Both the position numbers and the translations under genes were made by a program. The notes below the pieces were generated by a model. The model was given only the letters and a program-made list of their open reading frames with translations. It ran no database searches and had not been told where the DNA came from. A stretch of DNA of 64,000 nucleotides, from the IMG/VR virus record IMGVR_UViG_3300022555_001761; one strand, written 5' to 3'. Source of the DNA: a virus. Shown in pieces: positions 3,057 through 52,481 of this stretch (position 1 is the first letter of the stretch; the number at the start of each line of letters is the position of its first letter).

Positions 3057-3728
3057 ATGAATATCACATTTTTGTCGGATACACACAGCAAACATAAACA
3101 ATTGCTCAATCATCTTCCTGGAGGTGATTTAATTGTCCACGCGGGAGACTTAACCTCAGTTGGTTTCAAACATGAAATTGAAGATTTTTGTAAATGGTTT
3201 GAAAAATTAAAATATTCCAATAAAGTATTTATTGCTGGTAATCATGATCACGGATTTGAAAGAGATCATAATAGTGCATATGAAATTGTTAAAAAATATA
3301 AAATAAACTATCTTCAAGATAGTATGATTGAAATTGATGGAATTAATATATGGGGGTCACCTTGGCAACCAGAATTTTGTAATTGGGCATTCAATTTACC
3401 AAGAAACGGTTGGCAACTTGCAGAAAAATGGAACTATATACCAGAAGATACTGACATTTTAATTACTCACGGTCCACCATTTGGATGTTTAGATATTGTA
3501 AATGGTAGAAAAGAAAATATAGGATGTGAGTTATTAACTGAACGTCTTAAAATAGTTAAACCTAAAATTCATGTTTATGGACATATACATTCTGGATATG
3601 GTTATAAGTTCGATGGTAATACACATTATTTTAATGCTTCTGTATTAAATGAAAAATATGAATATACTAATAAGCCATTGACAATTGATTGGAATAAAGA
3701 AACAAATGAAATAACATTTTTAAAATGA
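3057..3728 (+). CDS. calcineurin-like metallophosphoesterase
   Basis: MNITFLSDTHSKH...GDLIVHAGDL...IAGNHDH...GHIHSGYG metallophosphatase motifs; track start 3030 is a TTG, so the first ATG is at 3057. Confidence 0.75.
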   Translation: MNITFLSDTHSKHKQLLNHLPGGDLIVHAGDLTSVGFKHEIEDFCKWFEKLKYSNKVFIAGNHDHGFERDHNSAYEIVKKYKINYLQDSMIEIDGINIWGSPWQPEFCNWAFNLPRNGWQLAEKWNYIPEDTDILITHGPPFGCLDIVNGRKENIGCELLTERLKIVKPKIHVYGHIHSGYGYKFDGNTHYFNASVLNEKYEYTNKPLTIDWNKETNEITFLK

Positions 3729-3997
3729 ATGAAGAATATAAAAAAGTTTGGAAAGAATATTTGACTGAATATTTAAAAGACTACACAGTAAAAGATAATA
3801 AAAGTATTTATAGTCATTATAATGGTTATAATGATGATTACAAATTAAAGATTGTGGATTACACTCAAATGTTGAAAGAGAAAAAAGAAGATCCTAAAGT
3901 AGCAAATGAAAAAATTTTAGAAAAAATACCTATTGCTGAAATTGAAAAATTCTTACGTAAAAAGAAATTAGAAAATTTAAAAAATAAAGAAGAATGA
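3725..3997 (+). CDS. family-B small protein (C-terminal FLRKKKLENLKNKEE tail)
   Basis: track ORF 90 aa; conserved C-terminal motif; ATGA overlap with the next gene. Confidence 0.55.
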   Translation: MNEEYKKVWKEYLTEYLKDYTVKDNKSIYSHYNGYNDDYKLKIVDYTQMLKEKKEDPKVANEKILEKIPIAEIEKFLRKKKLENLKNKEE

Positions 3998-4212
3998 ATT
4001 ATTCATTAGAAGATATTATGAAAGATATCTCAATTATAAAATATAGAAATCAATTTGAATGTGACTTTAATGACCATGAATATGAATATCAAAGGGAGTA
4101 TCGTAGAATGGAAGTTGAATGGAAAGAAAAATTGGATAATATTGATATTAAGTACATTGAAAAGTATTTGAGAAAAAAGAAATTAGAAAAATTAGAAAAA
4201 ATAAATCAATAA
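3994..4212 (+). CDS. family-B small protein (C-terminal YLRKKKLEKLEKINQ tail)
   Basis: track ORF 72 aa; conserved C-terminal motif. Confidence 0.55.
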   Translation: MNYSLEDIMKDISIIKYRNQFECDFNDHEYEYQREYRRMEVEWKEKLDNIDIKYIEKYLRKKKLEKLEKINQ

Positions 4213-4434
4213 ATGAGCAAAACAACAAAAAATGGAAGTAGTTTATCAGTAACTATATTTCTTATATTTTTAATCTTAAAACTTACTGGTACAATAACTT
4301 GGTCATGGTTGTGGGTGACTAGTCCATTATGGTTAGGCGTTGCACTATTTTTTGTAGGTGCATTTTTAATGTTACTATTTACTACTATAATAGTAGTATT
4401 AGGCACAATATTTGGAAGTAAAAATAATTTTTAA
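4213..4434 (+). CDS. small membrane protein (2 TM)
   Basis: track ORF 73 aa, hydrophobic. Confidence 0.45.
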   Translation: MSKTTKNGSSLSVTIFLIFLILKLTGTITWSWLWVTSPLWLGVALFFVGAFLMLLFTTIIVVLGTIFGSKNNF

Positions 4435-4436
4435 TT

Positions 4437-4694: not shown

Positions 4695-4724
4695 AATTAA
4701 TTTGTTTATTCAAAAATTTAGTTT

Positions 4725-4735: not shown

Positions 4736-4757
4736 AGTAAACTTAAAACAAACAATT

Positions 4758-4868: not shown

Positions 4869-4901
4869 GATTTTCCGTTGACTTACGAAATCAACACCTC
4901 C

Positions 4902-5500: not shown

Positions 5501-5806
5501 TTGAAGTATTTTTCATATCTTTGTTCCTTATTAAATAAAAAGGCAATGGACAATACAACTAAATGGTATAATTCAAATTATGATTGTTACGGTAATCCAC
5601 TAGGATATATTCAAGATGATATTCAAATAGGGGACACAGTTGAATATGCTTATGCAGATAACCATATGTCTGATGAAAGTGGTAGACCAAAAAGTAAAAG
5701 AGTAACTGTTAAAGTACAAGGTGTATGGGATGGTGAAAAGGCTTGTTTTAATGACAAAAAAAACGTTGTAGTAAGAGCTAAAGCCTGGTTAAAACTTGTT
5801 AAATAA
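5501..5806 (+). CDS. hypothetical protein
   Basis: track ORF 101 aa. Confidence 0.4.
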   Translation: MKYFSYLCSLLNKKAMDNTTKWYNSNYDCYGNPLGYIQDDIQIGDTVEYAYADNHMSDESGRPKSKRVTVKVQGVWDGEKACFNDKKNVVVRAKAWLKLVK

Positions 5807-6255
5807 TGGAAAAGGAAATTAAAAGGCTTGAGGAACAGATTGCTAAATGTGATGTTAAATTATCAAATAGTTCTTTTGTTGATAAAGCACCAAAAGATAT
5901 TATTTTAAAAGAACAACAAAAAAAGAAAGACTTTACAGCACAATTAGAAATTATAAGAAAACAATTAGAAAATTCTAAATCAGTTAGTAAAGATTACTAT
6001 GACGATGAAATTTGTCAATTCACAGTTGGCACAACTGTTTCCTATTTTAAGATACCAAGAACAGAAAGAAAAAAAGAATTTCTAATTTCTAAATTAGATA
6101 GTGTAGAAAAAATAAATTGGCATATTCAATATTTACGTGAACAAAAGACTAATATTGAAATATACAGTGAAGAATGGTATAACTTTATTTATAATGAGGA
6201 AATCACATCTAATGAAATAAATGAATTATTTGAAATTTTTAGGAAATTTGTATGA
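5806..6255 (+). CDS. hypothetical coiled-coil protein
   Basis: track ORF 149 aa. Confidence 0.4.
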   Translation: MEKEIKRLEEQIAKCDVKLSNSSFVDKAPKDIILKEQQKKKDFTAQLEIIRKQLENSKSVSKDYYDDEICQFTVGTTVSYFKIPRTERKKEFLISKLDSVEKINWHIQYLREQKTNIEIYSEEWYNFIYNEEITSNEINELFEIFRKFV

Positions 6256-6653
6256 AAGATATTCTGAGAAAAATAATATATGGTGCAGAAATAACAATTG
6301 TAAATGACACTGATGCATATTTGAATAAATATAGAAATGCTTCTCAAAAAATTGATATTTCTTATGCTAATATTCTACTATTCTTAAAAATAATAGGCTT
6401 TGATAGTGGAAATTTTGAAACTGGTGAAAGACATTATAGATTAGAAGAACCATTTTATTCTGTTAAAGATAAAATTAAAACTATTCATCTTGGAAAAATT
6501 GGAGAATGTATTGAAAGTCATAAACCAGCATACTATGTTACATATCCAGTATTTAAAGAATTAGAAAAAGCATATAATGATTTGAGAAATCAATTATTAC
6601 GAAAAGAAAAATTAAAAAAAATAGAAAATTATGGGAGTAATGAGTTGCTATAG
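6252..6653 (+). CDS. family-B small protein (tail LLRKEKLKKIENYGSNELL)
   Basis: track ORF 133 aa; C-terminal motif. Confidence 0.5.
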   Translation: MKDILRKIIYGAEITIVNDTDAYLNKYRNASQKIDISYANILLFLKIIGFDSGNFETGERHYRLEEPFYSVKDKIKTIHLGKIGECIESHKPAYYVTYPVFKELEKAYNDLRNQLLRKEKLKKIENYGSNELL

Positions 6654-6888
6654 AAATAATTGTGAAAATATAATGTGTGATATATATGTTAATGGTATTG
6701 GTTATGTTTGTTACGAATGTCAGAGTGAGTTTAAAGAATATTTAGCATCAAACGGAATTGTAGTAGAAACAGAAGGAGAAATAAAAAGAGAGTTACAAAA
6801 ATTTATGGAGTCTGAAAAAGATGCATACACAAAAGGAAAAAATATGAGTGTTGACGAATTTTTTAATGAATATAGAAAAGATTATTGA
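6631..6888 (+). CDS. Cys4 zinc-finger small protein
   Basis: CYRNNCENIMC...CYEC. Confidence 0.45.
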   Translation: MGVMSCYRNNCENIMCDIYVNGIGYVCYECQSEFKEYLASNGIVVETEGEIKRELQKFMESEKDAYTKGKNMSVDEFFNEYRKDY

Positions 6889-6889
6889 T

Positions 6890-7054
6890 ATGATATTAGT
6901 AATTTTAATTATAATAGTATTTATTGATATGAATATCATTAATATGATAAGATTTTTTGTTTCAAAAAAATACTTTGATACATTTTTTATCACTCAAAAA
7001 CAATTAAGAAAACTTAAATTAATTAAAATACAAAAAAATAGTGAAAACTTGTAA
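6890..7054 (+). CDS. family-B small membrane protein (tail QLRKLKLIKIQKNSENL)
   Basis: ATG 6890 in frame with track ORF 6848; one TM helix then the conserved tail. Confidence 0.45.
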   Translation: MILVILIIIVFIDMNIINMIRFFVSKKYFDTFFITQKQLRKLKLIKIQKNSENL

Positions 7055-7274
7055 AAAGATTTCAACTGGAGAGATATTTGAATATGAACAATGTGTTTCT
7101 TATCCTGTATTTGATAGAACTCGAAATAACGGCACAATATATTTTGAATTAATTTCAAAAGGTAAGTTTGTTCTGGGTAAGTATATTGGTGAGGACGAAT
7201 TTTATGATGAATATATTGATATTAAAAAAGAAAGAAGACTTAAATTAGAAAAATTAAATCAAATTCTCCAATAA
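7041..7274 (+). CDS. family-B small protein (tail KKERRLKLEKLNQILQ)
   Basis: track ORF 77 aa. Confidence 0.5.
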   Translation: MKTCKKISTGEIFEYEQCVSYPVFDRTRNNGTIYFELISKGKFVLGKYIGEDEFYDEYIDIKKERRLKLEKLNQILQ

Positions 7275-8197
7275 AACCCTTTATATTTAGTATTTTTTGC
7301 TATCGCCTTTCTTAAGTTTTGAATACATATTTCATTATAATTTTTTATTTCCTTAATATTATTCCAAATCCTAACTATACTTCCTTTTTCGTCTATTTGT
7401 TTAATGTTAGTATATTCTCTCGTATTTAAATTTAATTTTTTAATATTATTCTCAATTTCGGCTTTTTCTAAAAAGTTTAATGAATAATAATAATTTTTAG
7501 CATGCCTACATCTATCTTGTAAAACGAAACTTATAGAACGTGGATTAACATTCATTTCTCTTGAGCATTCTTTTATACTGTTAAATTTTTTTATATAATT
7601 TCCAAACATATCATATTGATATATCTCTATGTTTGTACATTTATTTTTATTATCTCTTATTGGTATATTATTTTCTTTTAATATTTTAGTAATAGTTTCT
7701 CTATCAATTTTTAATTCTATTGATATTTTTTTAATTGATAATTTATTAAAATATAATTCTTTAACTACATCAAGATATTTGCTCCTTTTTAATTTGTATG
7801 CTTTTGATACATTATTTCTATGTTCGTTTGTCCATTTCAATTCTAAATTTGTTGCCGCAAATGCTCTAGAATTATATCCATTTTTATAAGAGTTATATTC
7901 ATCAATATAATACTGTTCTCTTTTTATGCAACTATCACGATCACACTCTTCAATTATTTCAAATATTATATTATCAATTCCATACTTATTGACCGCATTT
8001 TGTAAAGAAGGTGAGTTAGATATATTTTTTGATAGTTTTAAAATATGACTGAGCCATCTTTTATGAAACCCATTTTTATTAGAAGTACTACCAATATAAA
8101 CTTTACCATTATTGTTAATAAAACTTATCTTATATACACCAATACTTTTAGGGAATATTTTTTTATCATTTATCGTATATTTCATTTTATATTTCAT
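7259..8197 (-). CDS. GIY-YIG homing endonuclease
   Basis: IGVYKISFINNNGKVYIGSTSN...R...H...EQYYIDEYNSYKNGYNSR GIY-YIG motifs plus C-terminal DNA-binding region. Confidence 0.85.
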   Translation of the reverse strand: MKYKMKYTINDKKIFPKSIGVYKISFINNNGKVYIGSTSNKNGFHKRWLSHILKLSKNISNSPSLQNAVNKYGIDNIIFEIIEECDRDSCIKREQYYIDEYNSYKNGYNSRAFAATNLELKWTNEHRNNVSKAYKLKRSKYLDVVKELYFNKLSIKKISIELKIDRETITKILKENNIPIRDNKNKCTNIEIYQYDMFGNYIKKFNSIKECSREMNVNPRSISFVLQDRCRHAKNYYYSLNFLEKAEIENNIKKLNLNTREYTNIKQIDEKGSIVRIWNNIKEIKNYNEICIQNLRKAIAKNTKYKGFYWRI

Positions 8198-10380: not shown

Positions 10381-10803
10381 TTTGTTATCTCTATTTTTAC
10401 CTAGATGATATCCATCACAGTAAATACATTTATACACTGAAAAATGTTTATCCATTTTTTTCGCCATACTATCTGCAGCTTTCTTTGCTGTTTCCTTAGT
10501 ATTATACATCACCTTTAGTTTACCATCCTCTCTCTGGTGACTTCTAATACTAAATAGACCCATTGCGTTGCCTGTAATAAAAAAGTTCTTAAAGGCTCTC
10601 TTTAATGGTAATTGTTCTTTAAGTCCAAGAAACAAATTTTCAACTTTAATTTTCTTATATTTTAATAATAAGTCAATTGCAATCCACAAAATTGCTAATA
10701 TACTACAAATAGCGCCAAACCACAAATAAAATTGGTGTATATGGTAAATAACTAACCATACACTAAGTAACAATATAAATAACGGATATTTTAATGTTTT
10801 CAT
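10378..10803 (-). CDS. membrane protein with C-terminal zinc ribbon
   Basis: track ORF 141 aa; 2 TM; CIYCDGYH. Confidence 0.45.
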   Translation of the reverse strand: MKTLKYPLFILLLSVWLVIYHIHQFYLWFGAICSILAILWIAIDLLLKYKKIKVENLFLGLKEQLPLKRAFKNFFITGNAMGLFSIRSHQREDGKLKVMYNTKETAKKAADSMAKKMDKHFSVYKCIYCDGYHLGKNRDNK

Positions 10804-11087
10804 TTTAATAATCTTAATTTTTCTAGTTTTTGTTTTCTGATATTTTGAATTTTTTTCATTTCAAATAATTTGATATCATATTCTGTAAATATGTCTTTAA
10901 TTGATTGTGTTGAGTCTATGTAAGTATATAATAATTTATTTTTTAAAAATATTTGTTTTTTATTTGTGCCTAATTTTTTTAAAATATTTTTAAAGAAATT
11001 GAACCCAAGTAAAAGGTAAAAAATCATAAATATAGAACATATAAATGATATAAAAAATAGTATTATTAATATTAAAACATCTAGCAT
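10800..11087 (-). CDS. family-B small membrane protein (tail IRKQKLEKLRLLK)
   Basis: track ORF 95 aa; the only minus-strand family-B member. Confidence 0.5.
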   Translation of the reverse strand: MLDVLILIILFFISFICSIFMIFYLLLGFNFFKNILKKLGTNKKQIFLKNKLLYTYIDSTQSIKDIFTEYDIKLFEMKKIQNIRKQKLEKLRLLK

Positions 11088-12833: not shown

Positions 12834-14042
12834 CTAAGTAGTTTCCTTACAAAGATTATACTTTATAAGAACTTTAGATAAATCTAAAGGCTCGTTCATA
12901 GAAGCAAAGTGATTTCCGAACCACCTATTCAATATATTTATGGCTGAATTTAAATCACGGTCTATAATTATGGTGTCTGATAACTGAACTTCCCTATTAC
13001 CAAGACTTATTTTATCTTTAAATAGTTTTCCAGTTAGACAGTTAATTTGTGTTGTCCATTTTTCATCAATTTTCACCAAGTTGGTATTTTTTGCTTGACA
13101 CTTATATGTAAGGAATTGTAGAAACATATTGATATTAGATTGACTAAATGACTTTCTAATACCTTTTTTATTCTCATTCACTCCTTCTGTTGACATTAGC
13201 CTCTTAACTGTTAGATCACCAACTACAATTGTATTGTAGTTCATATTCGATAACTTTTTACTCTGAATATGAAGAGTTTGTTTTATTTGTTCGTTCTTTT
13301 TATGATAACATTTATTTAATGTTTTTTTCAATAATAAGTTTCTATTTGATCCTTTTGTTGTTTTACTCCTTTTGTTTTGTATTTTTGCTATTTGTTTCTG
13401 ATAATAATCATTAATTTTTTTAGATTTATTTTTTAATACAATCATACCACCTTTATTATCTATTCCTGTTCCTAATTTACTTAACCCCAAATCAATAGCA
13501 AGAACTTTAGTTTTAACATTAACATCATTAAAATATTCTATTTTATCGTCAATCACCAAATCACACAACCATTTATGTCTAATAAATTTAATTCTTATTT
13601 CTTTTATTTTTAAATCTTTAATATTTAAATTTGATTTATATTCAAATGGAATTTGATTTAGAAAGAACAATCCTTTTTTTATCATCCATCCTGATTGATT
13701 AAAAGAAATAGTATGAAAATAATTATTTTCTATTTTTCTTGGTGGTTTAGCATTTTTATCTTTTTTTATCAAATTAAAAAATGACCTATAAGATCCATAT
13801 AATTCTGTTGCTATTGTTTGAATTGCCTTTGAATTTAATTTCTTCCAATCTGGATATTCTTCTTTTAATAATGGTAATAAATTATTTAACTTGAATTTAT
13901 CTAAAATTATTTTATCTGTTTCATATTTATCTTGTTGTATATCAAGCAATTTATTCCATATATCTTTACGAATATCAGATAATTCTTGTAATTCAAGAAT
14001 TTGTTCTTTTGATGGAAATAATCTTATTTGATACGTCTTCAT
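12834..14042 (-). CDS. tnpB: IS605-family TnpB-like protein with degenerate zinc finger
   Basis: 402 aa; RuvC-III DRDLNSAINI retained, but the CxxC...CxxC zinc finger is replaced by NCLTGK...QLSDT; no tnpA adjacent. Confidence 0.75.
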   Translation of the reverse strand: MKTYQIRLFPSKEQILELQELSDIRKDIWNKLLDIQQDKYETDKIILDKFKLNNLLPLLKEEYPDWKKLNSKAIQTIATELYGSYRSFFNLIKKDKNAKPPRKIENNYFHTISFNQSGWMIKKGLFFLNQIPFEYKSNLNIKDLKIKEIRIKFIRHKWLCDLVIDDKIEYFNDVNVKTKVLAIDLGLSKLGTGIDNKGGMIVLKNKSKKINDYYQKQIAKIQNKRSKTTKGSNRNLLLKKTLNKCYHKKNEQIKQTLHIQSKKLSNMNYNTIVVGDLTVKRLMSTEGVNENKKGIRKSFSQSNINMFLQFLTYKCQAKNTNLVKIDEKWTTQINCLTGKLFKDKISLGNREVQLSDTIIIDRDLNSAINILNRWFGNHFASMNEPLDLSKVLIKYNLCKETT

Positions 14043-14203: not shown

Positions 14204-14662
14204 ATGGAAAAGAAATATACATTTTTTTGGAATGGAGTTTTTAGTAACTGGCATAGAGCGATATTCAAAGTGGATGGTGTTACATTTAGTTCTGGGGAAC
14301 AGTACTTCATGTACAAAAAGGCTATTGTGTTTCACGATTTTGACTCTGCAGAAAAGATTATGAATGAAGAACATCCAAGAAGGCAAAAGGCTTTAGGAAA
14401 ATTAGTAAAGAATTTTAACAAAAAAACTTGGGATGATCTTTGTTATGATATAGTTAAGGATGGATTACGTGAAAAGTTTAAGCAAAATCCTGATATGAAA
14501 GAATATCTAATTAGTTGTAAAGACACTATTATTGTTGAAGCATCACCAGAGGATAGAATTTGGGGAATTGGATACGGAGAATGGGAAGCACTTGAAAATA
14601 TTGATGATTGGGGTCAAAATCTGTTAGGTAAAATATGTACTGAATTGGCTAATGAACTATGA
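14204..14662 (+). CDS. NADAR (YbiA-like) domain protein
   Basis: FFWNGVFSNWHRA...FSSGEQYFMYKKA...ASPEDRIWGIG NADAR signature. Confidence 0.8.
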   Translation: MEKKYTFFWNGVFSNWHRAIFKVDGVTFSSGEQYFMYKKAIVFHDFDSAEKIMNEEHPRRQKALGKLVKNFNKKTWDDLCYDIVKDGLREKFKQNPDMKEYLISCKDTIIVEASPEDRIWGIGYGEWEALENIDDWGQNLLGKICTELANEL

Positions 14663-16663: not shown

Positions 16664-16696
16664 AAAAAAAGAGGACTTTTCAGTCCTCTTTTTTTA
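16664..16696. terminator. bidirectional rho-independent terminator
   Basis: AAAAAAAGAGGACT-tttc-AGTCCTCTTTTTTT. Confidence 0.7.
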
Positions 16697-18499: not shown

Positions 18500-18500
18500 T

Positions 18501-41206: not shown

Positions 41207-41469
41207 GTACAGTAGTATATGCTAAATATAATTTTGTTGAATATAAATCTTCTGGTGAAGTAAAAAAATATTATGACAAAGAAAATGTATTTGCTCTATA
41301 TATTTTCAAATCTGGTTGGGAACATTTGCATCATTGTATTTTAGAATCAGGTGATTTTGAAACTGTAGATTATTATACTTACACATCTGAACAAATACAT
41401 AAAACATTTGGTATTAAATCATTTTCAAGAAAAGAAAAATTAAATAAGATAAATGCAAGCACTTTGTAA
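41203..41469 (+). CDS. family-B small protein (tail SRKEKLNKINASTL)
   Basis: track ORF 88 aa. Confidence 0.5.
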   Translation: MSTVVYAKYNFVEYKSSGEVKKYYDKENVFALYIFKSGWEHLHHCILESGDFETVDYYTYTSEQIHKTFGIKSFSRKEKLNKINASTL

Positions 41470-41716
41470 AAAAAATTATCATTTTTTTGAAAAAGGAAAG
41501 TATTATAAAATTGATAATATACATTCTGTATTTCAAAAAGATGATTTTATAAGTCTCAATTATGGTAACGATTTATTCAGATTTAGATTAAATCGTTCAT
41601 TAGAATGTATTGAAGGATTTATTGGTGAATTTGAAGTGTACTTTTATGACTATTTCTACAACGTTCAAGACCAAAGAAAAGCTAAATTAGAAAAATTATC
41701 AAATGTAAATTCATGA
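41453..41716 (+). CDS. family-B small protein (tail QRKAKLEKLSNVNS)
   Basis: track ORF 87 aa; its 3' end converges on the tnpB 3' end. Confidence 0.5.
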   Translation: MQALCKKNYHFFEKGKYYKIDNIHSVFQKDDFISLNYGNDLFRFRLNRSLECIEGFIGEFEVYFYDYFYNVQDQRKAKLEKLSNVNS

Positions 41717-41756: not shown

Positions 41757-42944
41757 TCAGGAAACAAGTTCCTTCTTTTTAAGCGTTTCGTTGCTTGTGC
41801 CAATCGAAATTGGTCTTATTTTTGCTCCACGCTCGTAATCAGACGTTCCATCTGATATATTTTTTCTATATCCTTCATTAAGAATATTTATTGATGCATT
41901 TATATCTCTATCATGTTTTCCACCACATTTAGGACAAATCCAAGTTCTATCATTTAAGGTTAAATTGTTGTTAATCCAACCACATTTAGAACAGGTTTTA
42001 GATGAAGGAAAAAGCCTATCTATATGAATGACTTGTTTATCATTCCAAAGTGCTTTATATTCTAAAACATCTATAAATCTACCCCAACTAACATCTGAAA
42101 TTGCTTTTGATAGTTTATGATTTTTCATCATTCCTTTAATATTTAAGTCTTCCAAATAAATTATATCAAAATCATGAATTAGTTTATTAATTGTTTTATG
42201 AATTAAATCCATTCGTGAGTTAGTTATTTTTTCATGAATTCTAGCAACTTTTAATCTTTGCTTTTCATATCTATTTGATCCTTTTGTTTTCCTTGATAGA
42301 TATTTCTGATTTAAGGATAATTTTTTTTCATAATTATTTAGAAATCTGTGGTTCTTGATTTTCGTTCCATCAGATAACACTAAAAAGTCTTTTATTCCTA
42401 AATCTATTCCTACTGATTGATTTGTTTTTTTATTTGGTTGATATTCTTGCTCTGTTAAAATTGATACAAAATATTTTCCAGTAGGAGTTTTTGATATAAC
42501 ACAATGCCTTATATTGCCTTTAATTTGTCTTTCCATTATCATTTCTATACCATCAAGGAACTTTGGAACAAACAATTTAGTTCCGTTGTATCTTACATTC
42601 TGTGGTATAGTAAATGAATTTTTATTTCTTTTTGATTTGAAATTAGGAAATTTAGTTCTTTTATTAAAAAATCCTTGGTATGCCATATCTAAGCATTTCA
42701 AAGAGTATTGTAATGTTTGTGAGTTTATTTCTTTCAACCAAGTATTAATTTTCTTTATTTGTGTTAATTCTCCTGCTTGATCATAATAATTTACTGATTT
42801 TTTATTATTTAAATATTCCTCTTTACGTTGGTTTAAAAAATAATTATAAGTCCATCTAACAGAGCCAAAGTGTTTATTTAATAACACTTGTTGAATTTCT
42901 GTTGGTTCTAACCTGAATTTATATGTGTATTTAATTATTCTCAT
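41757..42944 (-). CDS. tnpB: IS605/IS1341-family TnpB (intact zinc finger and RuvC motifs), no tnpA
   Basis: 395 aa; GIDLGIKDF (RuvC-I), TSKTCSKCG...ICPKCGGKHDRDINASINI (zinc finger plus RuvC-III). Confidence 0.85.
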   Translation of the reverse strand: MRIIKYTYKFRLEPTEIQQVLLNKHFGSVRWTYNYFLNQRKEEYLNNKKSVNYYDQAGELTQIKKINTWLKEINSQTLQYSLKCLDMAYQGFFNKRTKFPNFKSKRNKNSFTIPQNVRYNGTKLFVPKFLDGIEMIMERQIKGNIRHCVISKTPTGKYFVSILTEQEYQPNKKTNQSVGIDLGIKDFLVLSDGTKIKNHRFLNNYEKKLSLNQKYLSRKTKGSNRYEKQRLKVARIHEKITNSRMDLIHKTINKLIHDFDIIYLEDLNIKGMMKNHKLSKAISDVSWGRFIDVLEYKALWNDKQVIHIDRLFPSSKTCSKCGWINNNLTLNDRTWICPKCGGKHDRDINASINILNEGYRKNISDGTSDYERGAKIRPISIGTSNETLKKKELVS

Positions 42945-43106: not shown

Positions 43107-43538
43107 ATGAAATACACATTTTTATTTATATTCATTCTATCATTTCTTTCAATAAAAGCTCAAACTACATCATTACTTTTAGGAAGAGTATTAGATGAAA
43201 AAACAAATACACCAATTGAAAATGTAAATGTTAAAATAACTTATTCTCCTTGGAATATATCAAAAACAACAATTTCTGATAAAAAAGGAATTTTCTCAGT
43301 ATCAAATCTTTCACCAGGAGGACCTTACATTGTGAAATTCTCTTGTAGTGAATATGAAGATCAAATTAGAGAATTATCATCATTGGATCTTGGAAGTAAT
43401 AATTTGTCTTTACATATGAGAAAAACAAAGATTGATGAATTAGCAAATGTAGATAAACAAATATTAGAATTTCGTACTAAAGAATCAATTCTATTATTAG
43501 AAATGATAAAAATAGTAAAAAATGATTGTATGAAATAA
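43107..43538 (+). CDS. secreted CarboxypepD_reg-like domain protein
   Basis: signal peptide ending SIKAQ; LLGRVLDEKTNTPIENVNVKI...SDKKGIFSVSNLSPGGPYIVKFS. Confidence 0.55.
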   Translation: MKYTFLFIFILSFLSIKAQTTSLLLGRVLDEKTNTPIENVNVKITYSPWNISKTTISDKKGIFSVSNLSPGGPYIVKFSCSEYEDQIRELSSLDLGSNNLSLHMRKTKIDELANVDKQILEFRTKESILLLEMIKIVKNDCMK

Positions 43539-45850: not shown

Positions 45851-46426
45851 ATGAAGTATATTAAAAAATATGAAGATTATGGTATTGAATACGAATTTCC
45901 TGGTATGTTTGCTTCAAGAAAACCAGAAGATGAGCCTCAAAACGTACCTGGATTTGAAAGTGGCACAATAGATCCTGATGATGATGAAGTATATGATATT
46001 GAGGGATTTAGTGAAATGTCTGGAAAAGAAGGATATGAAAAAAAGTTTTTAAAAATCATAAAAGAACGAAATTTTGAAGAGACTCAAACAGAAATCAAAA
46101 TAAACGTTCATAGAATTGGCCAAGATTATTGTATGTCAATATATCAACCAACCCTTCATATTAATAAATTTTTAAATGATGAACTAAAAGGCATGTATAT
46201 CACAAAAGGTTTCATCAATGTAATGGAAAAGGATGTTACTGATGTTAATAATTATACATTTATAGAAGGCATAATAGAGAAAGTTAAAGTGACATATTAT
46301 AATGATAAATGTGATGCATTCTTCAATCTAAAACTTAAAGGTAAGCCTTATTCAGAAGATACATTGTGTAATAATACAATAGTTATTGATAAATTAAAAA
46401 CAGATGCAAATAAATATAATATTTAA
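45851..46426 (+). CDS. family-A protein (MKYIKKYEDY...ANKYNI), only plus-strand member
   Basis: track ORF 191 aa. Confidence 0.5.
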   Translation: MKYIKKYEDYGIEYEFPGMFASRKPEDEPQNVPGFESGTIDPDDDEVYDIEGFSEMSGKEGYEKKFLKIIKERNFEETQTEIKINVHRIGQDYCMSIYQPTLHINKFLNDELKGMYITKGFINVMEKDVTDVNNYTFIEGIIEKVKVTYYNDKCDAFFNLKLKGKPYSEDTLCNNTIVIDKLKTDANKYNI

Positions 46427-46623
46427 GGTTTACCTTTAAATGATATTACATCTTTTGTATGATTAGGTGGAACTACAACTGGCTCAATTTCACCAACTCT
46501 CTTTCTTTTCTTCTTCTTAACATCATTTTTATATGATGGATGCTCTCTACTGGGAGCAACAAATTCTACTGGATTAACCTCATTTGGTGCAATCATTTGT
46601 TCAAATGTTTTTAAGTGTTTCAT
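46423..46623 (-). CDS. family-A-like small protein (MKHLKTFEQM N-terminus, Lys-rich, no KYNI end)
   Basis: track ORF 66 aa. Confidence 0.4.
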   Translation of the reverse strand: MKHLKTFEQMIAPNEVNPVEFVAPSREHPSYKNDVKKKKRKRVGEIEPVVVPPNHTKDVISFKGKP

Positions 46624-46626
46624 AAT

Positions 46627-46968
46627 TCAAATATTAAATTTGTCAGTATCTATTTCAATTTTGCTAACTTTAACTTTACCCATAAATTTAAATTCACCTT
46701 TAAATTCTGATATATTACTAGTATAAAACCACCAAAAATCATTATCGTCTGTTATACCTTTTCCAATATAAATATGATCAAATAATCTACCAAGTTTAAA
46801 ATCTCTTATAATATCATCATAACATTGTTCATCAGGTGTTAATCCAATTTTTTTCAATGACACAACAATAGATGGTAAAGATTTACATTCTATCCTCCAG
46901 TAAACATTATAATCTAAGTTAATCAAACTGCTTGGATAACTAATTTCAAATGTTTTTAAGTATTTCAT
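46627..46968 (-). CDS. family-A protein (MKYLKTFEIS...TDKFNI)
   Basis: track ORF 113 aa. Confidence 0.5.
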   Translation of the reverse strand: MKYLKTFEISYPSSLINLDYNVYWRIECKSLPSIVVSLKKIGLTPDEQCYDDIIRDFKLGRLFDHIYIGKGITDDNDFWWFYTSNISEFKGEFKFMGKVKVSKIEIDTDKFNI

Positions 46969-47276
46969 AAGTTATATTTATTTGCATCAAATTCTGTATC
47001 AGACTTAAATCTTGTTGATTCCCATCCTTTAGTTATTTCTCCAGTTTCTAAATTTTCAACATCAACTCTTCTATATGTTATTTTTAGATATTTATCTTCT
47101 AGGTTATTATATATTCTCAAAACTTTATATTTAGCGCCATCTATTAATGGATTATGTTTAAATGCCTTAAGATTAGGTATTTTATCATCAGAACAAATTA
47201 CAGTATCACCTTCACCATAATCTAATGCTTGTCCTGTTTCTGTATTAAAAAATTCGAATGTTTTTAAGTATTTCAT
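46965..47276 (-). CDS. family-A protein (MKYLKTFEFF...ANKYNL)
   Basis: track ORF 103 aa; ATGA junction. Confidence 0.5.
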   Translation of the reverse strand: MKYLKTFEFFNTETGQALDYGEGDTVICSDDKIPNLKAFKHNPLIDGAKYKVLRIYNNLEDKYLKITYRRVDVENLETGEITKGWESTRFKSDTEFDANKYNL

Positions 47277-47716
47277 ATGTTAAATTTTTTTCTATCTGCT
47301 TTTAATTCAAAATCTTTTATTGATATTTGATCAATTATATTATCAACATTATCAACAATTTCAAATTGTGTATTAAAAAAACCTGGATTTTCACTATACA
47401 ATTTTAATCCAGATATAGTCTTCAAGTAATCAGGAATAAACTCTACTAACTCATCATCTACACTTGCAATTCTCATAGTCACTGATAAAAATATCAAGGA
47501 ATTAGAAAATTCACCATCTATATCAAACGCTCTTCTATCAAAATTATTTTTAAAATCTTGATTATAAAAATTATTTACGTATTGATATTCATCATAGTGC
47601 GCTTGATGTCCATATCCAAGTTCTTTAAACATAGACACAAAATGACTTAACAACTTTTTAAGTTCATCTAATCTAGAATTTGGATTTACACTTTCATATT
47701 TTTTAATATACTTCAT
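47273..47716 (-). CDS. family-A protein (MKYIKKYESV...RKKFNI)
   Basis: track ORF 147 aa. Confidence 0.5.
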   Translation of the reverse strand: MKYIKKYESVNPNSRLDELKKLLSHFVSMFKELGYGHQAHYDEYQYVNNFYNQDFKNNFDRRAFDIDGEFSNSLIFLSVTMRIASVDDELVEFIPDYLKTISGLKLYSENPGFFNTQFEIVDNVDNIIDQISIKDFELKADRKKFNI

Positions 47717-48018
47717 AGATTAAATTTTAATTGCTTCATTTTTAATTCTAATTCTTCTATTGTAGGTGCAAATGCTACTATATCATTTAAACTCATTGAT
47801 ACTCTTTTAGATGGTAATATTTTTACAGGAGCATCGTCATAATATATCATATATTTGTTTTTTGATAATGAAGGATAATTAGGATTAATTATTCTAAATT
47901 GACCAATGTTATCATTTACAACACTTCTATATATGTTATCTGGCTCAGCATAACAATACACATAATCACCAATTTGTGGCTTATTTTCAAAATTCTCAAA
48001 TAATCTCAAATGCTTCAT
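47713..48018 (-). CDS. family-A protein (MKHLRLFENF...QLKFNL)
   Basis: track ORF 101 aa. Confidence 0.5.
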   Translation of the reverse strand: MKHLRLFENFENKPQIGDYVYCYAEPDNIYRSVVNDNIGQFRIINPNYPSLSKNKYMIYYDDAPVKILPSKRVSMSLNDIVAFAPTIEELELKMKQLKFNL

Positions 48019-48638
48019 TGACCAATTCTAGTTATTAATTTTGTTATTAAATACTTGCTAATCAAATCATTATTAACTATACTATTAACATCACCAACTG
48101 AAACTCTAATACATTTTGATAATTTTTCAACTTTAGAACCATCTGTTGGTGGTTTAATCTGGCGATAAGAATTCACTGGTAGTTCTAATAAGCAAACCCA
48201 AATTTGGCTAGTATTATATTTATCAACAAAATACGGTCCTTCAACTTCAAATGGATATAAATTGTTAAGAAGTAATCCACTTTCTTCGTATAATTCTCTT
48301 CTAATAGTTTTGTCTGGTGTTTCACCATCTTCTATAGCTCCTGTAATAACTGTTAAATAATTTGTAATTCTTTTAAGGTTAGATTTATCCATATTTTTAT
48401 ATTGATAGGCTGGTAAATATTCTAATCTCATCAAAAATGTTGCTTCATCTCTAAAATAAGGTAGTATTGCAACTTTATCTTTAACTTGTAGAATTTCTGT
48501 CTCTTTATAATTAATAATATCTAAAAACTTTCCATTAAATAATGATACTTCATCAGGTACAAGCGGCTTATCTTCAATTTGTGTAAATTTTTCCATTAAG
48601 AAACTTTTTTCTTTATATATTAAAAAACAAAAATACAT
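48015..48638 (-). CDS. Nudix hydrolase
   Basis: Nudix box GAIEDGETPDKTIRRELYEESGL (Gx5Ex7REUxEExGU). Confidence 0.75.
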   Translation of the reverse strand: MYFCFLIYKEKSFLMEKFTQIEDKPLVPDEVSLFNGKFLDIINYKETEILQVKDKVAILPYFRDEATFLMRLEYLPAYQYKNMDKSNLKRITNYLTVITGAIEDGETPDKTIRRELYEESGLLLNNLYPFEVEGPYFVDKYNTSQIWVCLLELPVNSYRQIKPPTDGSKVEKLSKCIRVSVGDVNSIVNNDLISKYLITKLITRIGQ

Positions 48639-48672: not shown

Positions 48673-49533
48673 GTGATTCAAAAAATTAAAATAGAACTTT
48701 TTGATAATAAGTTCTATTCAGTAACTAAAGTCAATGCTCAACAAGTAAATATATCATATATAGATTTCTATACCACTCCAGCACCAACACCTTTAGGTAT
48801 GGCAACAATATCACCAAATGTTTATAACAAAGTTGTTAAATTAAAAAAGTTAGATATTTCAATTCCAAATAATTATGGTTATAATGATGATATGAGAGAA
48901 ACATATTTTTTATACAATTGTATAAAAAATTCAATAGATGCTGAATTCTTTATTAAAGTCTCAGAACTTGGTGAATTAAATAGAGTAAATGCTCCTATGA
49001 ATTTTTTAGATTTTAATATTAAAAAAATGAAAATAGGAGTTGATTCATCAGAATTATCAAGAAAAATCATATCTAAATTTGTAACTGTCTCAAATTATAT
49101 AGCTTCTGATGGTAGAATTGGTCCTTCACAATGGATAGTTTCAAATAGTCAAACATATAAGTATATTTTAGATAACTTAGATTCTCCATCTATAATTTAT
49201 GACAGTAACAATAATTATATCTTATTTGGTAATTCAGCATTTATTATTAATGATTCAATAAAAGATGACATAATATTACTTGGTCGTAAAAACAATAACC
49301 AACAATCTGGTGCTCATTGTTTTATATTAGCTGACAATGATGGTAATATTATTACTCAAGAATTTGCACAATTTGGAGGATTAACTCATAATAAAATAAT
49401 ATCAATCTATTACTCAATAGAAGAGATTGGAATTAAACCACAATCACAGTTTTTGGCATTAAAAACCAGAAGTATAGGATATTATAGAGCTAAAAAACTA
49501 CAAAGAATTAAAGAGTTATATGGTGAAGATTGA
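48673..49533 (+). CDS. hypothetical protein with family-B-like C-terminus (YYRAKKLQRIKELYGED)
   Basis: track ORF 286 aa. Confidence 0.4.
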   Translation: MIQKIKIELFDNKFYSVTKVNAQQVNISYIDFYTTPAPTPLGMATISPNVYNKVVKLKKLDISIPNNYGYNDDMRETYFLYNCIKNSIDAEFFIKVSELGELNRVNAPMNFLDFNIKKMKIGVDSSELSRKIISKFVTVSNYIASDGRIGPSQWIVSNSQTYKYILDNLDSPSIIYDSNNNYILFGNSAFIINDSIKDDIILLGRKNNNQQSGAHCFILADNDGNIITQEFAQFGGLTHNKIISIYYSIEEIGIKPQSQFLALKTRSIGYYRAKKLQRIKELYGED

Positions 49534-49643: not shown

Positions 49644-49895
49644 ATGGATTATAGTAAGATTATAGAAATAATAGAAAAAGATTGTAATCCTCCTTGGACA
49701 CATGGTGCATGGGGAATTGCTGGAGTATATGGCACAGTGTTAAAAACAGAAAAAAAGATAAATGATCACAATTATTATTATGAACTAGTAGCTAGTCAAC
49801 ACGGTGGAACTAGGGTAAAATATATTACTTGCACAGATATAAAATTTATAAGAAAAGAGAAATTAGAAAAAATAAACAATATTACAAATGAATGA
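49644..49895 (+). CDS. family-B small protein (tail FIRKEKLEKINNITNE)
   Basis: track ORF 83 aa. Confidence 0.5.
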   Translation: MDYSKIIEIIEKDCNPPWTHGAWGIAGVYGTVLKTEKKINDHNYYYELVASQHGGTRVKYITCTDIKFIRKEKLEKINNITNE

Positions 49896-52218
49896 TTTTT
49901 TTATACAAGCCCACACAAGTTTTATTGGGCAGACAGGATATAATGCTCATGCAAGAGATTTCTTCACAGCATTAAGTTATAAAAATCCATTAAGAATTAG
50001 AAATTTTACTGTAGGAAAAACTTGGGATGGATTAGGTCCAATGAACTCAAATGGTAGATATAATGATCCTCATGCAAATGAGTCATACATAACTGATTAC
50101 CAGAGAAAACTAATAAATATTCAGACATTATATTGTGGACTAGGTTCTCAAAACAGATATGGAAGTGGACTTTGTGACAGTGATGTTAATAGCGAAACAA
50201 AATATTTAAATGTACCAAAAGTAGATTTGATTTTAAGTGAAACCAATCATCATTATTATCATTGTCTCGAAAAATATACTGGTTTAAAAATTGCATATAA
50301 TGTTTGGGAATCAACAAAATATGAAGATGGATTTTTTGAAATACTTAAAAAGTTTGATCAATTCTGGTGTCCATCAAAATGGCAGAAACAATGTATTGTA
50401 AATCAAGGTTATCCAGAAAATAAAGTTTTTGTTGTACCTGAAGCTGTTGATGGATCTATTTTCAATCCAGACTTCTTCAATTACAATTTAGATATGTATA
50501 AAGATAATAGATTCAAATTTATATTATTTGGAAGATGGGAATATAGAAAAGCAACAACAGAAATTATTGATACTTTTATAAAAACATTTAGAAAAGAAGA
50601 GCCAGTTGATTTAATATTGGCAGTTGACAATTCAGATTATTCTAATGATGGAATGAAAACAACTGAAGAAAGATTAAATCATTATAATTTTAATGATAAT
50701 AGATTGAAAGTCTTGCATTTTGTTGATAGAAAAGATTATGTAAATTATCTTAAAAATGGTCATGTATTTTTATCTTGTGCAAGATCAGAAGGATGGAACT
50801 TACCATTGTGTGTTCCTTCTGGAAAATTAATATTTGGTAATAATAATTTCATTCCAATAGAATCAATAAAAGAAAATGATATAGTTATTAGTCACATTGG
50901 AAGAGAACAGAAAGTATTAAAAAAATTTAAAAATAAATATAATGGCGACATAATAAATATAAATTTGTATAACGATTTTGAAATGTTAAAATTAACACCT
51001 GAGCATCCAGTTTATGGTATTAAAAGAGAATCTTTTATAACAAAAAAAGGTAAATTTAATAATATTCAAAATATTAAGCCAGAATGGATAAAATCAAAAA
51101 ATATTAAAAAAGGTGATATAATACTGAGAACAACATTACCTCAAAAATATTTTAATAATGAAATAATTGATTTATTAACATTAGATAATACATTATTATT
51201 TGATGATGATAAAGTTTGGTATAAAACTGGATTTAATTATAAAAGTGAGCAACTTAAATATAATAGATTTGTTAATTTACATGATTTATCTTTTTTATTC
51301 GGATGGTATATTTCTGAAGGCACAGATGGTATATCAAAATTAATATTTTCATTAAATTATCAGAAAGAAATGCCAATTGCTGAAAAAATTATATTTGAAA
51401 TAAATAAAATATTTGGTGCTATTGGTAATTATGATATTAAAGGAAATAGGTTAATTGTAACTTTTAATTCCACTTTACTATGTAAATTTTTTACATTTTT
51501 TTGTAATAAAATGTCTTACAATAAAATAATACCAGAAAAAATTCTTTTAGGACCATTAAATATTTTAGATGAATTAATTAAAAATATGGTTTTAGGTGAT
51601 GGTTGTTATTCCAATGAAAGATTCAATTATACAACAGTATCATACTTACTAACTAGGCAATTGATGTTCGCAAATCAGCGATTAAACAAAAAAACTTCTT
51701 TACAACTCAATAAAAGAAAAAAAATTGGTAAACGTCCATGTTATACTCTATCATGGAGTATAAATAATGAAAATAATAGGCATAGTAATAAATCTTGGTG
51801 GCATCCAGAAGGATTAGCAATATTAGTTAAGAATTCTATATCAGAAAATTATAATGATTATGTTTACAATTTAGAAGTAGAAAATGATAATTCTTACTTA
51901 TTATCAAATGCAACTGTACACAATTGCGAAGCAATGGCTTGTGGTACGCCATCAATTTATTCTAATTGTAGTGGTCAGTTAGAATTCGCAGAAGGAAAAG
52001 GTCATCCAGTTAAAATAGTAAATGAAAAACCAATTCCAAATGGAGTAGGAAATTATTACGAACCTGATTTTGGTGATTTATCAAAAGTAATGAGAGATGT
52101 TTACACAAATTATTGGAAATATAAGAAAAAGGCATTAGAAGATTCTGAATTACTAATAAATGAATTCTCTTGGGATAATGCAGCTAATAAAGCACTTGCT
52201 ATATTAAAAAATATTTAA
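49888..52218 (+). CDS. GT4-family glycosyltransferase interrupted by an in-frame intein (404 aa after splicing)
   Basis: exteins ...FLSCARSEGWNLPL | intein | CEAMACGTPSIYS... together rebuild the GT4 EX7E motif (EGWNLPLCE) and the EAMAxGxP nucleotide-sugar binding signature. Confidence 0.8.
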   Translation: MNDFFIQAHTSFIGQTGYNAHARDFFTALSYKNPLRIRNFTVGKTWDGLGPMNSNGRYNDPHANESYITDYQRKLINIQTLYCGLGSQNRYGSGLCDSDVNSETKYLNVPKVDLILSETNHHYYHCLEKYTGLKIAYNVWESTKYEDGFFEILKKFDQFWCPSKWQKQCIVNQGYPENKVFVVPEAVDGSIFNPDFFNYNLDMYKDNRFKFILFGRWEYRKATTEIIDTFIKTFRKEEPVDLILAVDNSDYSNDGMKTTEERLNHYNFNDNRLKVLHFVDRKDYVNYLKNGHVFLSCARSEGWNLPLCVPSGKLIFGNNNFIPIESIKENDIVISHIGREQKVLKKFKNKYNGDIININLYNDFEMLKLTPEHPVYGIKRESFITKKGKFNNIQNIKPEWIKSKNIKKGDIILRTTLPQKYFNNEIIDLLTLDNTLLFDDDKVWYKTGFNYKSEQLKYNRFVNLHDLSFLFGWYISEGTDGISKLIFSLNYQKEMPIAEKIIFEINKIFGAIGNYDIKGNRLIVTFNSTLLCKFFTFFCNKMSYNKIIPEKILLGPLNILDELIKNMVLGDGCYSNERFNYTTVSYLLTRQLMFANQRLNKKTSLQLNKRKKIGKRPCYTLSWSINNENNRHSNKSWWHPEGLAILVKNSISENYNDYVYNLEVENDNSYLLSNATVHNCEAMACGTPSIYSNCSGQLEFAEGKGHPVKIVNEKPIPNGVGNYYEPDFGDLSKVMRDVYTNYWKYKKKALEDSELLINEFSWDNAANKALAILKNI
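50809..51924 (+). mobile_element. intein (372 aa) with LAGLIDADG homing endonuclease
   Basis: begins CVPSGKLIFGNNNFIPIESI (block A, Cys1); ends VYNLEVENDNSYLLSNATVHN followed by extein Cys+1 (blocks F/G); internal LSFLFGWYISEGTDG and ELIKNMVLGDGCYS LAGLIDADG motifs. Confidence 0.8.
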
Positions 52219-52223
52219 AATGA

Positions 52224-52481
52224 ATGGAAGGTCCTATACTATTAAGGATTTTTAGTTGTAAAGAGTGTGAACACTTAAAAAAAGCAACACTTTTTATAAA
52301 TGGTTCACCATATACTTGTTTTCATAATAATGTAATTAAAGGAATGAATGGCGTACAATTAATATCTGGAAGTATAGGTAAAGATAAAGTAACACCTGAA
52401 TTTTGCCCTTTTTTATTTAAAAGAGAAAGAGTTGAAAAATTGAAATTGTTACAAAATTATGACGAAGATGTTAAAAAATGA
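52224..52481 (+). CDS. family-B small Cys-containing protein (tail RERVEKLKLLQNYDEDVKK)
   Basis: track ORF 85 aa. Confidence 0.45.
   Translation: MEGPILLRIFSCKECEHLKKATLFINGSPYTCFHNNVIKGMNGVQLISGSIGKDKVTPEFCPFLFKRERVEKLKLLQNYDEDVKK

Follow-up and report, generated by a model that had tools for sequence, protein, structure and literature searches.

Why should as many as 19 proteins, most of them small and unrelated to one another, end in the same short basic peptide when all are encoded on a single stretch of viral DNA? The stretch in question, which we refer to as the window, is 64,000 nucleotides long and comes from the IMG/VR virus record IMGVR_UViG_3300022555_001761. A first-pass annotation had listed 19 of its open reading frames (ORFs) as carrying such a C-terminal tail, and all 19 are present where that annotation placed them, with the translations it described (Table 1; ORFs are named by their start coordinates). 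We have found that the tail is real, statistically overwhelming and apparently undescribed, a full-text search of the literature having returned no description of it. Although several explanations have to be weighed, we lean towards the view that the tail is a lineage-specific, transferable docking helix that gives unrelated accessory proteins one common address or tether.

The enrichment of the tail in the window is pronounced. A six-frame scan of the 64 kb with the pattern R[KR].KL..[ILMV] returned 17 matches, 16 of which lie about 8-17 codons ahead of the stop of a real ORF, the remaining one being an internal, tandem copy in the minus-strand ORF at 18878-19363. Shuffling the residues within each of 122 non-overlapping genes gave a mean of 0.018 C-terminal and 0.18 internal matches, against 16 C-terminal matches observed, and the total in the shuffles never exceeded three. 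In a gapped-peptide census of the window proteome, words of the RK.KL type are the most over-represented. A hidden Markov model (HMM) trained solely on tails of other contigs, and so independent of the window, finds the same 16 ORFs with scores of 8-26 bits and a clear gap above noise, every match lying 0-6 residues from the C-terminal end. ORFs 48673, 36600 and 52224 score at noise in this search; their orthologues (37-95 % identity) conserve variant tails, namely YYR[AKN][KL]KLQRIKELYG, REERLKKLKRLNK (in an orthologue of 37 % identity) and R[VS]EK[LI]K, the last within the longer pattern R[VS]EK[LI]K..[LI]. For ORF 48673 the stretch YYR.[KL]KLQRIKE is kept in 13 of 13 orthologues (38-95 % identity), with a strict RKKKLQKI in contig L008, and we regard this ORF as a probable divergent member of the tail family; ORFs 36600 and 52224 are possible ones. 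Tailed genes thus make up 13-16 % of the genes in the window, or about one gene in eight. All but one of the 16 strong members are on the plus strand (15/16), and the minus-strand arrays of small ORFs at 16680-19363 and 46423-48638 are without a C-terminal tail, a distribution that suggests that tailed genes may be confined to particular transcription units or to one temporal class.

The window is AT-rich (23-31 % GC over 64 kb) and densely packed with short, often overlapping ORFs, and the first-pass annotation had itself raised the concern that the tail might simply reflect a proteome rich in lysine, glutamate and leucine. It does not: the shuffles return close to zero, and so does a relative of the same GC content. 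LR756500, a 462-kb relative with a GC content of 23.5-24.4 % and a major vault protein (MVP) homolog 53 % identical to that of the window, yielded three six-frame motif matches in the 200 kb sampled, none of them at the end of a real ORF, and the uncultured 735-kb phage LR756501 had no tails in the 100 kb sampled, among them the 50 kb with its MVP gene. A DNA-pattern scan of IMG/VR was bimodal, with contigs of one clade having many, nearly all C-terminal, matches (22/22 in L023, and 20/20 within 6.3 kb of L059) and unrelated phages and giant-virus bins having one non-terminal match each. Because an equally AT-rich relative shows no tails in the 200 kb sampled and the IMG/VR scan is bimodal, the tail is a lineage trait of one sub-clade rather than an effect of composition, and it is confined to this clade of huge phages, from which we collected 255 distinct tailed ORFs. 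The clade consists of huge tailed phages with a GC content of 21-27 % and contigs of up to 501 kb among the IMG/VR relatives, and related genomes carry different sets of tailed cassettes. Its tail-bearing members include IMG/VR 3300044712_000732 (501 kb), 3300029983_000007 and 3300025150_000001. Among the genes of contigs with the tail are those for a large terminase, a T4 gp5-like baseplate hub (with a lysozyme or peptidase), a T4-type topoisomerase II and tail-fibre proteins, and the clade terminase shares 52 % identity with that of LR756501 and 38-43 % with the terminases of other phage genomes of 630-640 kb. Because of these genes and of the kinship of the terminase to those of huge phages, we conclude that the window is part of an uncultivated huge tailed bacteriophage and not of a eukaryotic virus. 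We take LR756501 to be the "Mahaphage" genome of 735 kb; that genome is reportedly the largest described by Al-Shayeb et al. in 2020 and is said to be a member of a "Mahaphage" group. We found no near-identical DNA relative of the window among GenBank phages.

The tail is a peptide under purifying selection. The first-pass annotation had argued for the peptide rather than a DNA repeat as the object of selection, pointing to synonymous variation in the tail, and the evidence bears this out. In the six-frame scan the motif is invariably in the gene's own reading frame, and within the window its arginine is encoded by AGA, CGT or CGA and its leucine by TTA, CTT, CTA or TTG. Among the 255 ORFs, the invariant leucine is encoded by TTA, CTT, CTA, TTG, CTG and CTC, with CTN codons at 27-34 % as against 26 % elsewhere in these ORFs, and the invariant arginine by AGA, AGG, CGA and CGT; figures without pattern-matching tails were computed alongside to offset the bias of retrieval by DNA pattern. 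The 24-nt core of 16 window tails is 76.7 % identical at the nucleotide level, compared with 72.3 ± 1.9 % expected from the peptide and codon usage, and the 36-nt flanks show 37-40 % identity, compared with 31 % for random segments. A DNA repeat or mobile regulatory cassette, such as a repetitive extragenic palindrome (REP), a miniature inverted-repeat transposable element (MITE) or a PeSL-like element, was therefore rejected, core identity being explained by peptide and codons and the flanks being near random. In 152 homologous pairs (35-92 % identity), the codon differs at 16 % of identical core residues, 50 of these switches being at the motif leucine, compared with 23.5 % in the bodies, and the variable (x) positions are conserved no better than the bodies (0.50 versus 0.47). 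Downstream of several tails there is either a convergent gene or a spacer exceeding 130 nt, and a translational-coupling element is thus not required; the tail of ORF 7041, for example, has no downstream gene to couple to because the next gene is convergent. Rfam returned nothing in the window.

The tail is also separable from the body and transferable. When the tail and the eight residues upstream of it are removed, the bodies of the 255 carriers fall into 141 BLAST clusters (E < 1e-3), the largest of which comprises 59 small SH3-like barrels, including window ORF 40106. Carriers include proteins with a single N-terminal transmembrane (TM) anchor, all-helical mini-proteins, beta-barrels and a 286-aa protein, and in complete DUF7448 and DUF6794 carriers the domain occupies residues 31-139 of 166 and 10-92 of 138, respectively, with the tail outside the domain. 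In contig L113 (10657-11241, plus strand) a 194-aa protein with a T4 gp32-like single-stranded DNA-binding (SSB) core (phrog_224, E 7e-8) has a C-terminal RKEKLEKI tail; we note that the tail stands at the place of the acidic protein-interaction domain of T4 gp32. Within the window, the description of the bodies as unrelated holds for most, the exceptions being ORFs 30280 and 39619, which are clear paralogues (1e-12), and ORFs 21321, 40106 and 41453, which are weakly related and SH3-like. The estimate that roughly half carry a TM helix was too high, the figure being 5-6 of 19 for the window and, under strict criteria, 11 of 255 for the whole clade.

Retention, loss and exchange of the tail can all be seen. 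In the family of ORF 39619, which comprises 223 clusters at 50 % identity, the tail is kept in 67 of the 71 sequences retrieved (30-100 % identity), the other four being truncated or variant, and R153 and K156 are invariant. A sub-clade of this family with a different, multi-TM N-terminus ends in ...SDIEWLESKK right after the shared body domain and is tail-less; one such tail-less gene was found in the midst of core genes, on a contig of 25 % GC whose sample also yielded a near-identical relative of the window. Conversely, the soluble protein of ORF 3725 and the TM protein of ORF 21563 share about 57 nt of tail DNA at 93 % identity (3944-3997 versus 21803-21853) and are otherwise unrelated, which indicates recent transfer of the tail cassette by exchange or gene conversion. 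Internal copies of the motif are rare, and most of them come from the fusion of a tailed ORF with the gene that follows it. An apparent exception is a family in contigs L031 and L054, in which the motif is at residue ~40 of 130-170-aa proteins. We note that L054 1-6256 and L031 (IMG/VR 3300030339_000011, 3300030019_000063) hold a tandem array of ~13 paralogous 116-168-aa proteins, about 11 of which have the strict motif FYDE..IRK.KLCKLNN embedded at that position; the tag could have originated in this array, or the array could put it to another use. We also note that in L004 (10001-10494, and in GCA_964520455.1) a gene of the 39619 type is broken into two ORFs, an N-terminal one of 91 aa and a tailed C-terminal one of 66 aa; this looks like a frameshifted or decaying copy and would be consistent with rapid turnover.

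What the tail might do is best approached through its anatomy. With body clusters equally weighted, the consensus is [IL]-K-x-[LI]-R-K-x-K-L-x-K-[IL]-N-[KN], with information only at positions -4 to +9 relative to the arginine and no conservation across clusters upstream of -5. Among the 255 ORFs the motif starts 8-21 residues from the C-terminus (mode 13), and the core is followed by 0-13 variable, polar residues and then the stop. The variants comprise RK.KL (231), RK.KI (21), RR.KL (16), RN.KL (10) and RE.KL (5); lysine at position 0 or arginine at +3 is practically never seen, though lysine far outnumbers arginine in the proteome. Because generic electrostatic binding would tolerate arginine/lysine swaps at 0 and +3, this census hints at specific recognition and is the strongest pointer to it that we have. 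AlphaFold2 models of ORF 39619 (pLDDT 90, 41 sequences) and ORF 40106 (pLDDT 82, built on 5 sequences because the homologue search gave only 2) place the tail in a confident terminal helix, at residues 146-165 and 86-101, respectively. A PDB fold search with these two models gave no significant match, and weak SH3-like matches for the body of 40106 only. On a helical wheel I/L-4, R0, K+3, L+4 and I/L+7 fall inside an arc of ~80°, with the variable positions +2, +5 and +9 opposite. The tail has a net charge of about +3.6 on bodies that are roughly neutral. It had been called amphipathic, but its helical hydrophobic moment is 0.199, compared with 0.235 for random 15-mers from the bodies, and is not elevated because conserved charged and hydrophobic residues share one face. 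With such a moment, and with arginine and lysine on the leucine/isoleucine face, a bacterial microcompartment (BMC) encapsulation peptide and a membrane-targeting amphipathic helix of the MinD-FtsA type were both rejected. No Pfam family covers the tail in any of the 19 window ORFs or in 50 clade representatives, and the same was true of PHROGs for a subset of the window ORFs; a PDB sequence search with one tail returned nothing, and with a profile of 91 tails a chance match only (E 0.15).

We propose that, in one AT-rich huge-phage clade, many unrelated accessory proteins have gained a C-terminal helix of ~14 residues, and that the face I/L-4, R0, K+3, L+4, I/L+7 of this helix docks stereospecifically into a common receptor in the host cytoplasm. 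Stereospecific docking to one cytoplasmic receptor is suggested because the conserved face is mixed, arginine and lysine are not interchangeable, and the set of clients is large and diverse. The cytoplasm is the predicted location also for carriers with a TM helix, which is single and starts at residues 1-5, with on average 0.18 lysines and arginines before it and 2.4 after it, so that these carriers are predicted to be N-out/C-in with the tail inside the cell. The likeliest receptor would be a protein whose groove is both acidic and hydrophobic, and the phage itself may encode it. The variable bodies would then provide individual functions and the constant tail the common connection, giving rapidly turning-over small proteins a shared address, be it a structure built by the phage or hand-over to a shared machine. 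A bolder version, to which we give a modest chance, is that the phage runs an intracellular sorting system of its own, in which a universal C-terminal address helix is read by a dedicated phage-encoded receptor and more than 100 accessory proteins are routed to a structure built by the phage. This might be a factory for replication or assembly, a shell made of protein or, for co-injection, the capsid, and to enter the system a new gene would only have to pick up the 40-nt tail cassette by recombination.

Several observations weigh against the docking proposal. The helix and its conserved face are predicted, and no candidate receptor emerged: the ORFs of ~360 aa that recur in the tail arrays proved to encode proteins alike in length but unrelated to one another, and a k-mer census of the window proteome found no complementary acidic motif. 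The clade-wide set was gathered partly by DNA pattern, and the strict regular expression presets R0, K+3 and L+4. CGN codons account for 8-10 % of the motif arginines, below the background of 19 %. BLAST clustering overestimates the unrelatedness of short, fast-evolving proteins, and one cluster alone has 59 members. Finally, the few internal or N-terminal copies mean that a free C-terminus is not required, which weakens models of terminal recognition.

Among the rival explanations, taken in descending order of probability, the first and still an unlikely one is that the tail is a degron, or a tether to a protease or unfoldase, handing its carriers, or targets bound to their bodies, to a host or phage AAA+ protease. 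This is in effect one specific form of docking. In this role the tail would, by analogy, resemble the XB tail of SspB or the basic ClpX signal of MuA and could serve to time the turnover of early proteins or to provide a library of adaptors for degradation. Those signals are likewise short C-terminal tethers, basic plus hydrophobic, to a hub (the N-domain of ClpX), and the strong C-terminal preference of the tail, its presence on soluble and membrane-anchored cytoplasmic proteins alike, its very large client set and a layout of variable body and constant tail that fits adaptors are in keeping with such a role. However, the SspB and MuA signals lie at the extreme C-terminus of single proteins, whereas the tail has a different consensus and more than 100 carriers, and the variable residues that follow it, together with the internal copies, are unlike carboxylate-dependent signals. 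In addition, neither Clp nor Lon is encoded by any of the annotated window genes, and the absence of the tail from the 200 kb sampled of LR756500, at similar GC, would be odd for a conserved host hub if the hosts are similar.

A shade less probable is that the tail is a cargo or packaging signal, for loading into the capsid for co-injection or into a shell built by the phage, for example of the MVP homolog. In encapsulins, microcompartments and the T4 prohead, contents are selected by short terminal peptides common to unrelated cargo, and the analogy is a natural one: encapsulin and microcompartment peptides are usually terminal, follow a variable linker and act as an address to one receptor, and the capsid targeting sequence (CTS) of T4, found on IPI-III and Alt, is a phage-specific short peptide on unrelated proteins that directs them to a phage structure. 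The MVP homolog of the window (30798-33209) has tailed genes around it, with ORF 30280 immediately upstream, and a huge capsid has room. Yet the tail does not have the encapsulin consensus GSL / LxIGSLKG, neither an encapsulin nor a BMC shell is found among the annotated window genes, and the carriers are far more numerous and diverse than those of encapsulin or BMC peptides. The T4 CTS is N-terminal, ~10 residues long and cut by the prohead protease at L/I-x-E; the tail is C-terminal and basic, occurs on membrane-anchored proteins as well, and has no evident cleavage site, the residue after the motif leucine being E in 30 %, K in 25 % and N in 13 %, rather than fitting an L/I-x-E site. The carrier genes, moreover, are in accessory arrays, not in structural modules. 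As for the MVP homolog, which the first-pass annotation had brought into connection with the tail, a link to it, as for vault cargo that binds MVP in the manner of an INT domain, finds no support in relatives: the complete genomes LR756500 and LR756501 (the MVP of the latter 49 % identical to that of the window) have MVP yet no tails in the 200 kb and 100 kb sampled, MVP-bearing 50-kb stretches included, and the more distant MVP contigs L014, L015, L017, L019 and L020 gave 0 tail matches. Phage MVP homologs have been noted once before, in a 2023 preprint (bioRxiv 10.1101/2023.11.10.566534).

We consider it improbable that the tail is a nucleic-acid-binding helix, holding its carriers to the DNA of phage or host, to RNA or to ribosomes. 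The charge of the tail on neutral bodies, the gp32-like SSB carrier and the AT-rich DNA of the phage and probably of its host are what one might expect of such a helix, but arginine and lysine that cannot be exchanged, with invariant leucine and isoleucine on the same face, are unusual for backbone binding. A lone, undimerised 14-residue helix binds weakly, and the preference for lysine over arginine is unlike arginine-rich RNA-binding motifs.

An explanation that is less probable again, and already largely refuted, is that the carriers are one extremely diverged paralogous family of which the tail, as a structural or oligomerisation helix, is the last conserved segment. Tandem arrays of 60-100-aa genes, such as the 20 in 6.3 kb of L059, do resemble paralogue expansions, and the 59-member SH3-like cluster and borderline similarity among ORFs 21321, 40106, 41453 and 36600 also speak for it. 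Nevertheless, TM, all-helical, beta-barrel, DUF7448, DUF6794 and SSB bodies have the tail outside the domain, the same body can be tail-less, nothing is conserved upstream of -5, and tail DNA has been exchanged between unrelated genes. Refuted, finally, are a DNA- or RNA-level element (repeat, promoter or coupling signal), a compositional artefact and a eukaryotic nuclear localisation signal (NLS), to which together we give next to no credence: the core is rich in A (AGAAAA...AAATTA), overlap with the next start is common among tailed ORFs, and RKKK fits the monopartite NLS cluster K-K/R-x-K/R, which is present in all tails but trivially so in any basic stretch, while the motif is always in frame, its six-fold codons switch class, its flanks are unconserved, shuffles and LR756500 give zero, and the host, to judge from the terminase, the gp5-like hub and the T4-type topoisomerase II of the clade contigs and from the operon-like gene organisation, is a bacterium, which disposes of the NLS idea of the first-pass annotation.

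A shared sorting, docking or targeting signal, as that annotation had proposed, is thus still the best general reading, and two eukaryotic systems offer further parallels to the docking helix that we favor. The poxvirus PRANC/F-box-like motif, found on ankyrin-repeat proteins, likewise equips a large viral repertoire of variable target-binding bodies with a constant C-terminal plug to one machine, but it is a fold of ~40-50 residues that binds Skp1 in eukaryotes, whereas here there is no Pfam match, no single class of repeat accounts for the bodies and the host is bacterial. RxLR and PEXEL, of oomycete and Plasmodium effectors, are likewise lineage-specific host-targeting motifs with an invariant arginine and leucine on hundreds of unrelated, fast-evolving small proteins, but they are N-terminal, serve secretion or export and are proteolytically processed, whereas the tail is C-terminal, cytoplasmic and found in a phage. 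Compared by eye only, the FtsZ C-terminal peptide (FLRK), NUMOD3, the APIM/PIP clamp motifs and the T4 gene-60 nascent peptide (KKYKL) were set aside on mismatches at key residues or positions. The tail is a new variant, in huge phages, of the concept of a shared short targeting or docking peptide, and is a member of none of the systems with which we compared it.

Table 1. Tailed ORFs and other annotated genes of the window, with the tail peptide, its position and its score in the tail HMM search
Feature	Coordinates	Strand	Description	Tail	Tail coordinates	HMM (bits)	Remarks
ORF 3725	3725-3997	+	90 aa, soluble	EKFLRKKKLENLKN	3944-3985	14.8	
ORF 3994	3994-4212	+	72 aa	EKYLRKKKLEKLEK	4159-4200	16.5	
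ORF 6252	6252-6653	+	133 aa	NQLLRKEKLKKIEN	6588-6629	14.0	LLRKEKLKKI conserved in L022 orthologue (45 % identity)
ORF 6890	6848-7054	+	68 aa, hydrophobic N-terminus	QKQLRKLKLIKIQK	6995-7036	21.5	GTG start at 6848 possible; 54 aa from ATG 6890
ORF 7041	7041-7274	+	77 aa	IKKERRLKLEKLNQ	7221-7262	18.4	
ORF 10800	10800-11087	-	95 aa, N-terminal TM helix	IQNIRKQKLEKLRL	10809-10850	11.5	sole strong member on minus strand
ORF 14659	14659-14877	+	72 aa	IKKIRKKKLKKINK	14812-14853	21.6	
ORF 21321	21321-21566	+	81 aa, SH3-like	EKEERKLKLQILKL	21513-21554	16.8	
ORF 21563	21563-21853	+	96 aa, N-terminal TM helix	QKWLRKKKLENLKN	21803-21844	8.1	
ORF 30280	30280-30663	+	127-aa TM protein	IKRIRKEKLEQIAK	30616-30657	14.2	39619 paralogue
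ORF 36600	36600-37103	+	167 aa	LDDIREERLKKLKR	37038-37079		divergent variant; possible member; HMM at noise
ORF 39619	39619-40119	+	166 aa: N-terminal TM helix, beta domain, tail	IKELRKQKLKKIAE	40063-40104		
ORF 40106	40106-40417	+	103 aa, SH3-like beta-barrel	KKEIRKLKLNKIEN	40364-40405	26.0	starts at TTG
ORF 40871	40871-41206	+	111 aa	ISYMRKLKLKKIK	41165-41203	16.2	single residue past core; starts at TTG
ORF 41203	41203-41469	+	88 aa	KSFSRKEKLNKINA	41416-41457	18.5	tail kept in L004 and L007 orthologues
ORF 41453	41453-41716	+	87 aa, SH3-like	VQDQRKAKLEKLSN	41663-41704	20.1	followed by convergent TnpB gene
ORF 48673	48673-49533	+	286 aa	IGYYRAKKLQRIKE	49474-49515		variant tail; probable member; weak in HMM search
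ORF 49644	49644-49895	+	83 aa	IKFIRKEKLEKINN	49839-49880	24.9	
ORF 52224	52224-52481	+	85 aa, Cys-rich	FKRERVEKLKLLQN	52416-52457		divergent variant; possible member; HMM at noise
Internal copy	18878-19363	-	161 aa	ARKLKLERKAKLKRI			tandem motif copy, then 38-residue helix-like extension
RCC1 repeat protein	329-1576	-	seven RCC1 repeats				eukaryote-like repeats in bacteriophage
149-aa ORF	5806-6255	+	N-terminus matches valyl-tRNA synthetase tRNA-binding coiled-coil arm (PF10458, E 3e-14)				without synthetase body
GIY-YIG/NUMOD homing endonuclease	7259-8197	-					among accessory gene arrays
GIY-YIG/NUMOD homing endonuclease	26536-27186	+					among accessory gene arrays
GIY-YIG/NUMOD homing endonuclease	33772-34542	+					among accessory gene arrays
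TnpB	12834-14042	-	IS605 OrfB / Cas12f-like				
TnpB	41757-42944	-	IS605 OrfB / Cas12f-like				closes a tail-gene array
Ankyrin repeat protein	24768-25499	-					eukaryote-like repeats in bacteriophage
MVP homolog	30798-33209	+	803 aa, MVP shoulder and vault repeat domains				conserved in numerous huge-phage contigs (42-91 % identity)
77-aa protein	33212-33445		net charge -17				directly after MVP homolog
CarboxypepD_reg protein	43107-43538		143 aa				separate gene upstream of barrel gene
Glycosyltransferase	49888-52218	+	GT4-like, 776 aa				intein-splicing-domain match
Outer-membrane beta-barrel	52660-55926	+	TonB-dependent-receptor-like, 1088 aa				CarboxypepD_reg domain, weak plug match
Contiguous cluster	56032-63860	+	DNA methylase, 895-aa methyltransferase-domain protein, DegT-type aminotransferase, NAD-dependent epimerases/dehydratases				

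The other genes of the window are listed in Table 1. A radical-SAM enzyme, an RNA ligase and a DNA methylase are also annotated, no tRNA genes were found in the window, and the 39619 family was found neither in the GenBank phage collection nor in the GTDB representative genomes. We interpret the two TnpB genes as mobile insertions, because relatives have TnpB elsewhere (L004 15425-16639). The orthologue of the glycosyltransferase in L004 and L005 has 404 aa and is without the intein domain, which suggests an intein insertion polymorphism. The 1088-aa barrel protein is 32 % identical to a protein of the human-gut phage contig MT837825; the TonB-receptor-like barrel and CarboxypepD_reg genes hint at a host of the Bacteroidota type. 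The cluster at 56032-63860 looks like a phage-carried module for sugar or surface modification.

Huge phages carry hundreds of small genes without an annotated function. Here, more than 250 distinct proteins in at least 141 clusters are linked by one peptide, which turns a set that could not be annotated into one addressable system, and the identity of the receptor would give the whole tailed set a common cellular context. If the tag is sufficient for targeting, it would provide a compact, portable handle for synthetic biology. More generally, the tail shows how the exchange of a very short cassette can let a phage draw new genes into a pathway.

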